In this document: piece by piece, positions 30,612 through 63,826 of the stretch | How positions within the stretch are numbered: position 1 is the first letter of the stretch | Layout: each line of letters begins with the position of its first letter | Source of the DNA: a virus | Taxonomy: Duplodnaviria; Caudoviricetes | Reading direction: 5' to 3' (one strand) | IMG/VR virus record: IMGVR_UViG_3300025789_000018 | DNA length: 64,000 nucleotides | Program-made: the position numbers and the translations under genes | Notes under the pieces: generated by a model | Seen by the model: the letters and a program-made list of their open reading frames with translations, nothing else | Told to the model about the DNA's origin: nothing | Databases searched by the model: none

Positions 30612-30685
30612 TGGAGCCTCATAACGGTACCTCCCCGTTTTCCTCTGGGTGGAAGCCAGATGCATTGATTCTATGCTAATGAGGC
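30612..30685 (-). tRNA. tRNA-Gly(UCC) with non-canonical D- and T-loops
   Basis: GCCTCAT-TA-GCAT-AGAATCA-ATGC-A-TCTGG-CTTCCAC-CCAGA-GGAA-AACGG-GGAGGTA-CCGTT-ATGAGGC-T-CCA; all four stems fully Watson-Crick. Confidence 0.85.
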
Positions 30686-30768: not shown

Positions 30769-31362
30769 ATGGTTATTTATCTATACGTGAAGCAATGTGG
30801 TCATTGTGATATGAAATATTTTGGTTACACTAAAACAAAAAATCCTTTCAGATATAAAGGATCTGGTCAGTATTGGATCAGACACATAAAATCGCATAAC
30901 ATAACACCTATAACTTTAGAAGTACACACCTTCTATAACCAAGAAGACGCTACGGCATATGCTATTTCGTTCTCACAAGAAAATGATATTGTCGAATCTA
31001 AATCTTGGGCAAATCTTGTACAGGAAGACGCTAAACCTGGAAATGTGGGATGTAAATATCACACAGGACCAAGATCGGGGTTAACTGAAGAATCGAGAAT
31101 CAAAATGGGACTTGCGAACAAGGGGAAGAAACGATCATCTGATACTATAAAAAAACTTTCAGATTCACACAAAAACAGAAACAAAACTCAACTAGAAATA
31201 GATCGTTTAACTAGTCTACACAAGAAAAATGTAGGTAAAAAAAGATCAACTGAAACAAAAGAAAAAATGAGACTTGCTCAACTTGGTAAAGTTCCAAGTG
31301 AAGAGACTAAGAAAAAAATAAGCGAAACATTAAAAAATAAACATCAAGGCAAAAGATCGTAG
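30769..31362 (+). CDS. GIY-YIG-like (Seg-type) homing endonuclease with NUMOD3-like repeats
   Basis: IYLYVKQC..C.MKYFG, YKGSGQYW; RSSDTIKKLS, RSTETKEKMR, PSEETKKKIS. Confidence 0.8.
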   Translation: MVIYLYVKQCGHCDMKYFGYTKTKNPFRYKGSGQYWIRHIKSHNITPITLEVHTFYNQEDATAYAISFSQENDIVESKSWANLVQEDAKPGNVGCKYHTGPRSGLTEESRIKMGLANKGKKRSSDTIKKLSDSHKNRNKTQLEIDRLTSLHKKNVGKKRSTETKEKMRLAQLGKVPSEETKKKISETLKNKHQGKRS

Positions 31363-59141: not shown

Positions 59142-59656
59142 GTTAAGCGGGTGTATGTGTACTCGCGATATGAAAACTCTGCTGTAGCCGTAACGTAGTT
59201 TACATCAGTTTCAGTGGAATCAAATCTGAAACCCGACAGTGAAATGGGGTTGACATCACTAAATGTGATCTTAAGATTTGGATTCATTGTACCATTCAAT
59301 ACAATCAAGTCCGCGTCTACCAGAACACCGAAACCGTTTGGTTGTGCATTCAATGCTGCATACTGATTGAAACTCTCTGGAGTACCAATACCAGTCATCC
59401 AGTCATAGATTTCAAAGTAGTTGTACATGTCTTCATCGATCTTGAATGTCAACGAGAATGTATCAAACGTCAATGGAGTACCTGGCAACTGCATCTTACC
59501 GAAAGGTGTCTGTTGATTTCTGCTAGTGCTTAGACTGATGCGAGGAAAATCAAAGCTTTGGGCAAAGTAGTCAACATTTGGATTCTTGGTGAGATTAAAC
59601 TTATAACCAAGCGGGCTGAGAAAGTCGATTGATACAGGTTGAGTTGGATTTGTCAT
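59138..59656 (-). CDS. 3: Tail completion / sheath stabiliser gp3
   Basis: FLSPLGYKF, F.IDEDM.NY.EIYDWM, FDSTETDV.Y.TA.A.F.Y; synteny. Confidence 0.8.
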   Translation of the reverse strand: MTNPTQPVSIDFLSPLGYKFNLTKNPNVDYFAQSFDFPRISLSTSRNQQTPFGKMQLPGTPLTFDTFSLTFKIDEDMYNYFEIYDWMTGIGTPESFNQYAALNAQPNGFGVLVDADLIVLNGTMNPNLKITFSDVNPISLSGFRFDSTETDVNYVTATAEFSYREYTYTRLT

Positions 59657-60276
59657 AAAACATCTTTCTTTTTGTATGGACCTCGTTTGATTCCAGTTCG
59701 CGCTAATCCGCTTTTTCTTCCTGCTTCATTCATCAATTCTTTTGGTCTAGATTTTTGTGCGATAGACTGTTTTTCTTTCCAAACATCACCTCTATTTCTT
59801 GCATTTTCCCTAAACGCGCATAGAGTAGCTTCCGAATACACTCCAGTTTTTCCTTTATTCCAGGGCTCTTTACCAAGTAGGATTTTAGATTTATTATCTT
59901 TCCATTCCTGAGTACGCTCGTATTTGCCCATTTTTGCGCTATTAGATTTAGGCTTCCTCATCTTCTGCCTGGTCTCTTCGGTGTGTTGCCATCCTGATAT
60001 TCTGCCGGCGCTTATATTCTCTACGATCAGATTGGCCCATTCTTTAGATTCTACTATATTATTATCTTCGGAAAACTTGATTGCAAAATCTCTAGCTTCT
60101 TCCTCGTCATAAAACGAGAACAACTCTAACGTTTCTTGTTTAGAATTGTGTTTTTTTAGATGATCTTTCCAGTAGATTCCAGAACCCGTATATGATATGG
60201 GATCGGATCCCATTGTTTTACCGAAATATCTCAGTTCGCAGTGTGTGCATTTTTTCACATAAAGATGTATTGCCAT
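59653..60276 (-). CDS. GIY-YIG-like (Seg-type) homing endonuclease
   Basis: IHLYVKKCTHC.LRYFGKT, YTGSGIYW, HTEETRQKM, PWNKGKTG; TATAAATA at 60304-60311. Confidence 0.8.
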   Translation of the reverse strand: MAIHLYVKKCTHCELRYFGKTMGSDPISYTGSGIYWKDHLKKHNSKQETLELFSFYDEEEARDFAIKFSEDNNIVESKEWANLIVENISAGRISGWQHTEETRQKMRKPKSNSAKMGKYERTQEWKDNKSKILLGKEPWNKGKTGVYSEATLCAFRENARNRGDVWKEKQSIAQKSRPKELMNEAGRKSGLARTGIKRGPYKKKDVL

Positions 60277-61411: not shown

Positions 61412-61446
61412 GGGTTGACATTTTTAGCGAATCGTATATAGTGGGA

Positions 61447-61944: not shown

Positions 61945-62023
61945 GCGCTGGTATGCCGCCTGACTTCTAATCAGGAGAAAGCTAACTGGACACATGGGGG
62001 TTCGAATCCCTCCCAGCGCGCCA
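61945..62023 (+). tRNA. tRNA-Arg(UCU)-like RNA lacking a D-arm, with D-loop-like sequence in the variable region
   Basis: GCGCTGG-TATGCCG-CCTGA-CTTCTAA-TCAGG-AGAAAGCTAACTGGACACAT-GGGGG-TTCGAAT-CCCTC-CCAGCGC-G-CCA. Confidence 0.7.
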
Positions 62024-62051: not shown

Positions 62052-62261
62052 TTGATTATGATTGAAGGGTTGAACTTATGTATTCGAAGCACCGAAACTA
62101 TCAATAAAGGCATGGGCGGAAGAGATATGCCTTTGTATTATCTTAAAAAGTGTAAGACTGCACTTGAAGTTGCGACAGTCGCATTAGAAGAAGCATATGC
62201 TTCTGATGATGCAACAGAAATGCGACATATCATTTCTAATGCTCTGGAAGCTTTAAAGTGA
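62052..62261 (+). CDS. Hypothetical protein whose last 21 nt overlap a tRNA
   Basis: 69-aa ORF between tRNAs. Confidence 0.45.
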   Translation: MIMIEGLNLCIRSTETINKGMGGRDMPLYYLKKCKTALEVATVALEEAYASDDATEMRHIISNALEALK

Positions 62262-62314
62262 AGCCAGCCGCTCATAACGGCTAGAAGGCGGGGCAGTACC
62301 GTCACGGAGTACCA
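62241..62314 (+). tRNA. tRNA(CAU) (Ile2 or Met) with non-canonical elbow
   Basis: GCTCTGG-AA-GCTT-TAAAGTG-AAGC-C-AGCCG-CTCATAA-CGGCT-AGAA-GGCGG-GGCAGTA-CCGTC-ACGGAGT-A-CCA. Confidence 0.75.
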
Positions 62315-62331
62315 AAAAAGAAAGTTTGTAA

Positions 62332-62408
62332 GGACCCTTAGCTTAGTAGGCTAAAGCATTCGACTTTTAATCGAAAGATCCTGGGTTCGAGTCCCAGAGG
62401 GTCCACCA
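62332..62408 (+). tRNA. tRNA-Lys(UUU)
   Basis: Canonical cloverleaf; TTCGA-CTTTTAA-TCGAA; CCA. Confidence 0.95.
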
Positions 62409-62571
62409 AACTAAGTGAAGGTAATTTATGATCAAGATCATACTTGTTGTGATGTTAATTTCGGTTGCAATAGCTATCATCAACGGTATATGTGATAAGG
62501 ATGATAATACTGCTGGTTGGAGTTAGCAACAAGGATACTGGTGAAAATCCAGGCGGGTCCACCAATTTAAT

Positions 62572-63795: not shown

Positions 63796-63826
63796 GGGGA
63801 GTAGTTTTGCTACTCCCCCTTTTTTT
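63796..63826 (+). terminator. Intrinsic terminator, possibly bidirectional
   Basis: GGGGAGTAG/CTACTCCCC stem followed by a T-run. Confidence 0.8.

Follow-up and report, generated by a model that had tools for sequence, protein, structure and literature searches.

Can a gene give up nearly all of the bases that join the D loop and the T loop of a transfer RNA (tRNA) and still encode a working tRNA? This question is raised by a 74-nucleotide (nt) locus, positions 62241-62314 on the plus strand, in a 64,000-nt stretch of DNA from a virus of the Caudoviricetes (IMG/VR record IMGVR_UViG_3300025789_000018); the whole stretch is referred to here as the window. The locus had been picked out from the letters alone as a tRNA with the anticodon CAU and a rewired elbow, the second of its kind in the window after a tRNA-Gly. 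From the comparisons described below, it is very probably a real tRNA gene of a class with an altered elbow. The fuller reading, that it is a functional gene of this class, most likely for tRNA-Ile2, in a tRNA cluster of a T4-like phage, also appears likely.

Structure and detection of the CAU tRNA

The cloverleaf can be parsed straight from the sequence as GCUCUGG AA GCUU UAAAGUG AAGC C AGCCG CUCAUAA CGGCU AGAA GGCGG GGCAGUA CCGUC ACGGAGU A CCA. The four stems have 7, 4, 5 and 5 base pairs with standard spacing, and 20 of the 21 pairs form. The exception, a G7xA66 mismatch, lies in the acceptor stem (5' strand GCUCUGG, nucleotides 1-7; 3' strand ACGGAGU), which also contains the wobbles G1.U72 and U5.G68 and carries C4-G69. 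The acceptor is followed by A8 and A9, and A8 faces U14 in the core. The D stem (GCUU/AAGC) is Watson-Crick in all four pairs and is followed by C26, the anticodon stem (AGCCG/CGGCU) is paired at all five, the variable loop is the 4-nt AGAA, and the T stem (GGCGG/CCGUC) has a single G.U pair. The anticodon loop has 7 nt with U33 and a purine at position 37, and the 3' end consists of the discriminator A73 and an encoded CCA (62312-62314). The minimum-energy structure calculated by RNAfold is this cloverleaf, with a fold-energy z-score of -1.56.

The departure from a canonical tRNA is in the elbow and the core. G18 G19, T54-Psi55-C56, A58 and U8:A14 are all missing except for C56 and G19. The T loop reads GGCAGUA and the D loop UAAAGUG, with AG for GG; G19-C56 is a Watson-Crick pair and A8-U14 is complementary, which are the traits of the class described below. 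Every structural detail given by the original prediction (T loop, D loop, A8 with U14, perfect D and anticodon stems, wobbles and mismatch in the acceptor) is correct on re-reading of the sequence.

ARAGORN makes no call at the locus, and the Rfam tRNA model RF00005 does not match it even at E<=10. A loop-blind cloverleaf scanner, which requires the four stems only and no loop sequence, found five objects in the window: three canonical tRNAs, the CAU tRNA and a tRNA-Gly(UCC) on the other strand (Table 1). In simulated windows the scanner finds 0.12 cloverleaves per window, none of them with CCA, and about 0.002 with CCA are expected. A joint covariance model with the Gly copy had been proposed as a check on the prediction. 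A covariance model (R2) built without the two altered-elbow genes of the window and without the nearest homologue recognises both: the CAU tRNA scores 73.2 bits (E 4e-19) and the Gly tRNA 69.6 bits, and the canonical tRNAs of the window score 42 bits at most.

A class of tRNAs with an altered elbow

The T arm common to the two window copies, CGG-GGNNGUA-CCG, served as the seed for a search of IMG/VR for the arm together with CCA. The search pattern, CGGGGNNGTACCGT-N9-CCA, fixes part of the T arm, and it is found at 117 or more viral loci. Among the matches listed there are about 80 complete cloverleaves, which represent 57 distinct sequences with anticodons for Ile, Val, Lys, Glu, Gln, Trp, Thr, Gly, Pro and Ala. 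The class members look like chargeable tRNAs because the expected identity marks are present and fit the anticodons, with G3.U70 in Ala, G73 in Trp and Gln and U73 in Gly. ARAGORN recovers only 2 of the 57 (again among the matches listed), and the Rfam tRNA model gives some U8-type members 33-54 bits and detects no A8-type member. The CAU tRNA is overlooked by both because its elbow is built from different, co-varying bases.

In a gapless alignment of 36 class sequences, 97.7% of the alignment cells in stems are paired, compared with 62% in shuffles. The tertiary pairs 8:14 and 19:56 played no role in choosing these sequences. Position pair 8:14 is UA in 24 and AU in 12 with no mixed cases, so that the swap of A8 and U14 noticed in the CAU tRNA is a recurrent state of the class; 19:56 is GC in 33, UA in 2 and AU in 1. 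A larger set of 584 distinct cloverleaves was parsed from viral loci chosen for carrying the class T arm, and the other tRNAs at these loci are unconstrained by that choice. In this set the base at position 55 follows the D loop, being U with GG and G with AG. Among 7-nt D loops the combination at 18:55 is G:U in 115, A:G in 80 and mixed (G/A with U/G) in 2 (Fisher 2e-53, ignoring relatedness), and over the whole set 54:58 is U:A in 394, G:G in 98 and A:U in 52. A T loop of the G55 type is present in 175 of the 584 (30%). Where the T loop is of the GGNRGNA type (93 cloverleaves), the D loop has AG and lacks GG in 78. Altogether the altered elbow is common to at least 93 distinct phage tRNAs, among which about 25 anticodons occur.

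Read in this way, the rewired elbow is a coherent alternative solution, with A18:G55 and G54:G58 as its characteristic pairs, 19:56 kept as a Watson-Crick pair and 8:14 free to be swapped; the covariation suggests that A18:G55 and G54:G58 make their contacts within an L-shaped fold. The original prediction had taken the separate occurrence of the Gly and CAU tRNAs as a sign of a class rather than of decay. This has held up, with the same T arm at at least 117 loci, mostly in full cloverleaves, and with 8:14, 19:56 and 18:55 all co-varying.

Other elbow variants are common at the same viral loci. The pair A54:U58 occurs either as AGCGUUA, with G55 and an AG D loop, or as AUCGUUA, with U55 and GG, and in UGCRANU G55 goes together with the usual U54:A58. 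Within the set of 584, variation in the 18:55 module is independent of that in the 54:58 module.

Conservation of the CAU lineage

Searches restricted to CAU tRNAs in viral and metagenome contigs found eight further members of the A8 type, one on a 163-kb viral contig (L126) and the others on metagenome contigs (L177, L185, L188, L196, L190, L179 and L186). In the nine members 188 of 189 alignment cells in stems are paired and 11 pairs have changed on both sides; shuffles of the same set are 80% paired and none of 500 reaches the observed value. No variation is seen in the D loop, the anticodon loop, C56, A73 or CCA, and in the T loop it is confined to R57. The window copy and that of L126 differ at 12 positions, all 12 in stems and none among the 32 unpaired positions, and 11 of these differences keep the pairing. 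RNAalifold, applied to six CAU members, predicted the cloverleaf independently, with 16 of 21 pairs compensated. The elbow pattern, on whose conservation the original prediction depended, is thus kept in the eight CAU relatives as well as in the class. The comparative record shows that the four stems and the tertiary pairs are all under selection.

Closer relatives (G001/L001 and L003-L006) share 99% identity with the window. They are uninformative on selection because the tRNA is without any change at this level of identity. An identical CAU tRNA sequence is found in contigs from freshwater samples dated 2012 to 2017. Comparison of the DNA contigs at the locus revealed two single-nucleotide polymorphisms, both outside the tRNA, which have no bearing on expression or selection.

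Proposed formation and function

From the sequence we infer the transcription, processing, tertiary-pair geometry, lysidine modification and charging of this tRNA as follows. It would be transcribed from the early-type promoter match at 61415 within a multi-gene precursor, from which RNase P of the host would free the 5' end by a cut at G1; trimming would take the 3' end back to the encoded CCA. The RNA is expected to fold into the normal L shape. In the elbow, A18:G55 would replace G18:Psi55 and G54:G58 would replace T54:A58, while the Watson-Crick pair G19-C56 would be kept. In the core, A8:U14 with G21 would stand instead of U8:A14 with A21, together with a 7-nt D loop and a 4-nt variable loop. 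Neither T54 nor Psi55 modification is possible, because there is no U at position 54 or 55. As tRNA-Ile2, its C34 would be converted to lysidine by host TilS, it would be charged by IleRS and it would read AUA.

Amino acid identity

Which amino acid would this tRNA carry? If it is a functional tRNA of the class, Ile2 is the favoured identity, elongator Met is a possible but clearly less probable one, and any other identity or a non-decoding role is improbable. Among the bacterial determinants given in Table 1 of PMC9976931 are A73, C4-G69, U12-A23, C29-G41, A37 and A38 for Ile, and U4-A69 and A5-U68 as acceptor marks for Met. The CAU tRNA carries every one of these Ile marks. The triple of C4-G69, C29-G41 and A73 is found in 10 of 21 GAU, 8 of 30 CAU and 15 of 533 other phage tRNAs (Fisher 7e-6), and C29-G41 is present in all nine members of the lineage. 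The CAU tRNAs of these phage clusters form three groups. The initiator-like group has an unpaired 1:72 and A11:U24, the probable Met elongators have the loop UUCAUAC and no Ile marks, and the Ile-like group has C4-G69, U12-A23, C29-G41 and A73. The CAU tRNA of the window falls in the Ile-like group. It does not resemble an initiator tRNA-fMet, since it has G1.U72, C11-G24 and C29-G41/C30-G40/G31-C39 where a bacterial initiator has an unpaired 1:72, A11:U24 and three G-C pairs at 29-31:39-41, and its acceptor is not that of an elongator tRNA-Met, having C4-G69 and U5.G68 rather than U4-A69 and A5-U68.

In E. coli the acceptor-stem marks for TilS are C4-G69 and C5-G68. The window tRNA has C4-G69 with U.G at 5:68, the homologue on L126 has both marks, and four members of the lineage have G4-C69. 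The original prediction had seen in C4-G69 a hint of Ile2. The Ile2 identity has been strengthened by the full set of Ile marks, and mainly by C29-G41, but C4-G69 itself is not constant in the lineage. AUA makes up 12% of the Ile codons in the window, which is compatible with Ile2 or Met and decides nothing.

The strongest competitor is an elongator tRNA-Met of the same class, in which C34 would stay unmodified and MetRS would charge a tRNA that reads AUG. MetRS relies mainly on CAU and A73, both of which are present, and AUG is three times as frequent as AUA in the open reading frames (ORFs) of the window; the inconstancy of C4-G69 also speaks for Met. However, the bacterial Met acceptor marks are missing, and C29-G41, U12-A23 and C4-G69 are present as they are in the GAU-Ile tRNAs of these phages. 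In addition, the probable Met elongators of these clusters form a distinct group. A tRNA-Met is considered unlikely, and tRNA-Ile2 is retained as the better reading.

The acceptor mismatch and the overlapping reading frame

The original prediction had described the acceptor as weaker. One part of this description stands, as G7xA66 is a real weakness: it is the sole unpaired stem cell among the nine lineage members, and the relatives have U7-A66 in eight of eight cases. The other part does not, since G1.U72 is constant in all nine and U5.G68 is common to three of the eight relatives. With a G.U or U.G wobble at 5:68 in seven of nine, the weak pairs at 1:72 and 5:68 are, by this comparison, traits of the lineage.

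The mismatch is connected with an ORF that runs into the tRNA. As had been predicted, the first 21 nt of the tRNA are also the end of the ORF at 62052-62261. Read in the frame of this ORF, U7-A8-A9 gives a UAA stop in the relatives. Because G7 of the window removes that stop, the ORF is four codons longer and ends at the UGA at the end of the D loop, so that one substitution, U7 to G7, accounts for the mismatch in the acceptor as well as for how far the ORF overlaps the tRNA. The ORF, at most a putative gene, belongs to no Pfam or PHROG family, it has no homologues outside the 99%-identical contigs, and no comparable ORF is found in front of the CAU tRNAs of the eight relatives. On these comparisons the overlap is an accident of this phage lineage and no property of the class.

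Could the window copy be a recently disabled member of the class, decaying through G7xA66 while the 3' end of a protein-coding gene takes over its sequence? An unpaired 7:66 is seen only here, both among the nine lineage members and among the 36 class members, and the change responsible is the one that deletes the UAA stop and gives the ORF its four additional codons. On the other hand, this is a single defect in a tRNA whose loops and 20 other pairs are all intact and whose CCA is kept, and no further change is seen in the contigs from samples dated 2012 to 2017. Acceptor mismatches also occur in conserved members of the class; the Trp lineage has two, which are retained across five variants. 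The ORF that would be taking over is without homologues and without a family. Decay is judged to be improbable.

A non-decoding RNA is less probable still. The proposal here would be a tRNA-shaped RNA that serves as a processing signal separating mRNAs, or as a decoy to divert host factors by which tRNAs are attacked or sensed. Phage tRNA clusters do contain RNAs of this sort, for example the annotated stable RNAs of phage T5, and a tRNA-like RNA without a D arm is present in the window's own cluster. An altered elbow would also escape proteins that read T54-Psi55. Such a role is difficult to reconcile with an anticodon loop that is invariant (U33, CAU, A37 and A38), an anticodon stem that co-varies and synthetase determinants that are kept, and the class as a whole resembles a decoding set, since its about 25 anticodons go with fitting identity elements (G3.U70 in Ala, for example). 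A cloverleaf formed by chance where a coding region ends, which the modest z-score and the silence of the standard finders might suggest, is counted as already refuted by the small number expected per window, above all with CCA, by the score of the held-out model and by the compensatory changes in eight relatives.

Several points weigh against a functional tRNA-Ile2. Since the ORF and the tRNA share 21 nt, translation and tRNA maturation would compete on one transcript. The mismatch at the foot of the acceptor is unique to this copy in its lineage, and together with the two G.U pairs it could reduce processing or charging. G4-C69 replaces C4-G69 in four of nine lineage members, and the window has U5.G68 and not C5-G68. 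The identity rules applied are those of E. coli and may not be those of the host of this phage. Finally, the covariation statistics take no account of relatedness, and the pattern used to draw the class sample fixes part of the T arm.

Genomic context

The window comes from an uncultured T4-like myophage of fresh water. The UvsW-like helicase it encodes shares 45-50% identity with myovirus helicases of pelagiphages, Methylophilales phages and cyanophages, late-promoter boxes of the T4 type (TATAAATA) are four times over-represented in the window, and its DNA recurs in many freshwater metagenomes. The features of the locus are collected in Table 1. A clear terminator follows a tRNA-Gln at 63796-63818. 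A terminator at 62262-62315 was considered and rejected; the terminator-like match on the minus strand (62284-62264) is the anticodon arm read backwards.

Table 1. Coordinates of the CAU tRNA, its parts and neighbouring features in the window
Feature	Position	Strand	Remarks
tRNA gene, anticodon CAU, CCA encoded	62241-62314	+	A8-type member of the altered-elbow class; probably tRNA-Ile2
G7 A8 A9	62247-62249	+	G7 mismatched with A66 (62304); U7 in 8/8 relatives
D loop UAAAGUG	62254-62260	+	U14 A15 A16 A18 G19 U20 G21; no GG; elbow partners: A18 for G55, G19 for C56
Anticodon CAU	62273-62275	+	inside the loop CUCAUAA (62271-62277); U33, A37, A38; loop invariant in 9/9 lineage members
T loop GGCAGUA	62292-62298	+	G54 G55 C56 A57 G58 U59 A60; T-stem strands 62287-62291 and 62299-62303
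Putative ORF, 69 codons (67 from ATG at 62058)	62052-62261	+	stop TGA at 62259-62261, where the D loop ends; its final 21 nt are tRNA nucleotides 1-21
tRNA-Gly(UCC), second class member	30612-30685	-	21/21 pairs Watson-Crick; T loop GGAGGUA, D loop AGAAUCA, U19-A56; CCA encoded
Strong sigma-70-like promoter match	61415-61442	+	TTGACA, 16 nt, TATAGT; 11/12; upstream of the cluster of small ORFs and tRNAs; consensus match only
Arg(UCU)-like tRNA without D arm	61945-62023	+	upstream in the cluster; 40.9 bits with the Rfam tRNA model; 4 nt in place of the D arm
tRNA-Lys(UUU), canonical	62332-62408	+	17 nt downstream of the CAU tRNA, same strand

The D-armless Arg(UCU)-like RNA has a homologue on L126 (3750-3828, minus strand), directly after the CAU homologue of that contig. 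By eye, there are compensated changes between the two copies in the acceptor and anticodon stems, and conservation of the linker UAUGCCG and of the long variable region. From this comparison it looks like a real, conserved RNA. Another element lies at 62508-62566 (+), after a 32-codon ORF (62428-62526). It contains CUGG-UGAAAAU-CCAG-GCGGGUCCACCA, repeats the 3' end of the tRNA-Lys (GGGUCCACCA) and looks like a remnant of a tRNA, the 3' half.

Two paralogous ORFs of about 200 amino acids with NUMOD3 motifs, at 30769-31362 (+) and 59653-60276 (-), adjoin the two tRNA clusters of the window. They resemble homing endonucleases, and a similar ORF precedes the CAU homologue on L126.

RNAs other than tRNAs were also seen on contigs that bear the class. 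About 30 viral loci (for example L030 on the minus strand, L009 and L018) have an RNA-like element of about 85 nt with the class T arm, which reads GGGGUAG...UUUCGACGAGGGG...CACGG-GGCAGUA-CCGUG-CUACUCC-ACCA. Its acceptor is 7 bp long and includes G3.U70, and its 5' part resembles the start of a transfer-messenger RNA (tmRNA). The element may be a mini tmRNA-like RNA, that is, an alanine-type tRNA-like domain without the message part. GOLLD, skipping-rope and manA RNAs lie near the tRNA clusters of such contigs. A GOLLD RNA on L065 (1700-2162) scores 194.7 bits, a GOLLD match on L011 (1720-2254) scores 135.4 bits, which is below the Rfam gathering score of 150 bits, and further RNAs of this group are found at L045:883-966 and L042:3930-4104.

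Occurrence in bacteria and in a cultured phage

The class is also found in cellular genomes. In Verrucomicrobia, class tRNAs occur in tight arrays and score 45-77 bits with the class model. Chthoniobacter flavus Ellin428 (G003) has nine or more of them within 3.5 kb (C52:146133-149685), and further verrucomicrobial arrays are located at C1:4291538-4299237 of G002 and C8:218557-220655 of G004. The altered elbow is found as well in initiator-type CAU tRNAs of candidate-phyla-radiation (CPR) bacteria. Four such tRNAs, on CPR and groundwater contigs (L157, L182, L184 and L174), have A11:U24, the T loop GGCGGUA and the D loop AAUAGUA or AAAAGUA; 1:72 is an A1/A72 mismatch in the first three and C1-G72 in L174. 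In some bacteria of this radiation the initiator tRNA may have the altered elbow as its native form.

Searches of GenBank phages with the CAU tRNA region, by megablast and blastn, returned matches to canonical tRNA-Lys only. When class members were used as BLAST queries, the matches were mostly canonical Ile, Met and Val tRNAs of Felix-O1-like phages, Vibrio phages and actinophages. One was class-like, an unannotated tRNA-Val(CAC) in the cultured Erythrobacter phage XM05 (PV416404; L136:1484-1559), which has the T loop GGCAGGA and the D loop AGUUAGUA and scores 57 bits with the class model.

Comparison with known tRNAs

The tRNA-Ile2 genes of E. coli (ileX) and phage T5 (tRNAI2(CAU)) share with the window tRNA the loop CUCAUAA, A73, C4-G69, U12-A23 and C29-G41, and that of T5 also shares A8 and a location in a phage tRNA cluster. 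The window tRNA differs in its T loop (GGCAGUA versus UUCRANY), in the D loop without GG, in the 4-nt variable loop and in the wobbles G1.U72 and U5.G68; the lysidine of the known tRNAs is predicted here. Closer counterparts are the CAU tRNAs with a canonical elbow on related phage contigs (L084, L105 and L117), in which the acceptor and anticodon-stem marks are nearly identical. The CAU tRNA of L105 has the acceptor GCUCUGA/UCGGAGC with U5.G68, and that of L084 has GGUCCUG, A8 A9, C26 and AGCGC. In contrast to the window tRNA, their D loop contains GG, their T loop has UUCGA and their variable loop is 5 nt long. The elbow module exists in both states within one apparent isoacceptor family.

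Functional tRNAs without the canonical D-loop and T-loop motifs are known. Mammalian mitochondrial type II tRNAs and tRNA-Pyl naturally lack G18G19 and T-Psi-C, and the contact of their D loop with the T loop is lost or replaced (PMC7609411). The phage class differs from these in that it would keep the contact with other bases, as the covariation of 18:55 and 19:56 indicates. Phage tRNAs are unmentioned in this 2020 review of non-canonical tRNAs.

Supernumerary, horizontally spread tRNA arrays that carry homing endonuclease genes offer another parallel. Class tRNAs sit in such arrays in Verrucomicrobia, and NUMOD3 endonuclease-like ORFs adjoin the clusters of the window, although the window is from a lytic-type T4-like phage. 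A term search of the paper on supernumerary tRNA arrays returned nothing on T-loop, D-loop, T-arm or tertiary features. The tRNA region of phage T5 (NC_005859) is similarly a mixture of tRNAs with small ORFs, homing endonucleases and tRNA-like stable RNAs, and several annotated coding sequences there end within tRNA genes, overlapping them by 14-24 nt as the ORF of the window does. The T5 tRNAs, Ile2 among them, have canonical T loops.

Significance

The tRNA is thus of a known kind, and its elbow architecture appears to be undescribed in the open-access literature searched; no description of the variant was found there, which is no proof of novelty. The locus at 62241-62314 is one more member of the variant class. 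For the class itself, the data point to a natural and repeatedly used alternative to two near-universal tertiary pairs, with G18:Psi55 becoming A18:G55 and T54:A58 becoming G54:G58 or A54:U58. The clean co-variation makes the rules of the contact between the T loop and the D loop directly testable, as well as the reading of the elbow by RNase P, the ribosome, EF-Tu and modification enzymes.

Why would phages maintain a parallel set of tRNAs that folds without the host T54 and Psi55 modifications? The class raises the question of whether altered-elbow sets evade host defences directed at tRNAs. That the altered elbow is a phage strategy, and not neutral drift, is at present a doubtful proposal. 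If it were true, the set would be invisible or resistant to host factors that bind or cleave the standard T loop or elbow, such as toxins and defence nucleases directed at tRNAs, and translation would continue while the host tRNAs are attacked. The near-identical T arm (CGG-GGCRGUA-CCG) across isoacceptors and phages would then be under selection for evasion. For phages of this type, tRNA counts and estimates of codon supply are likely too low, and for the phage studied here the locus adds a probable AUA-reading tRNA to its set.

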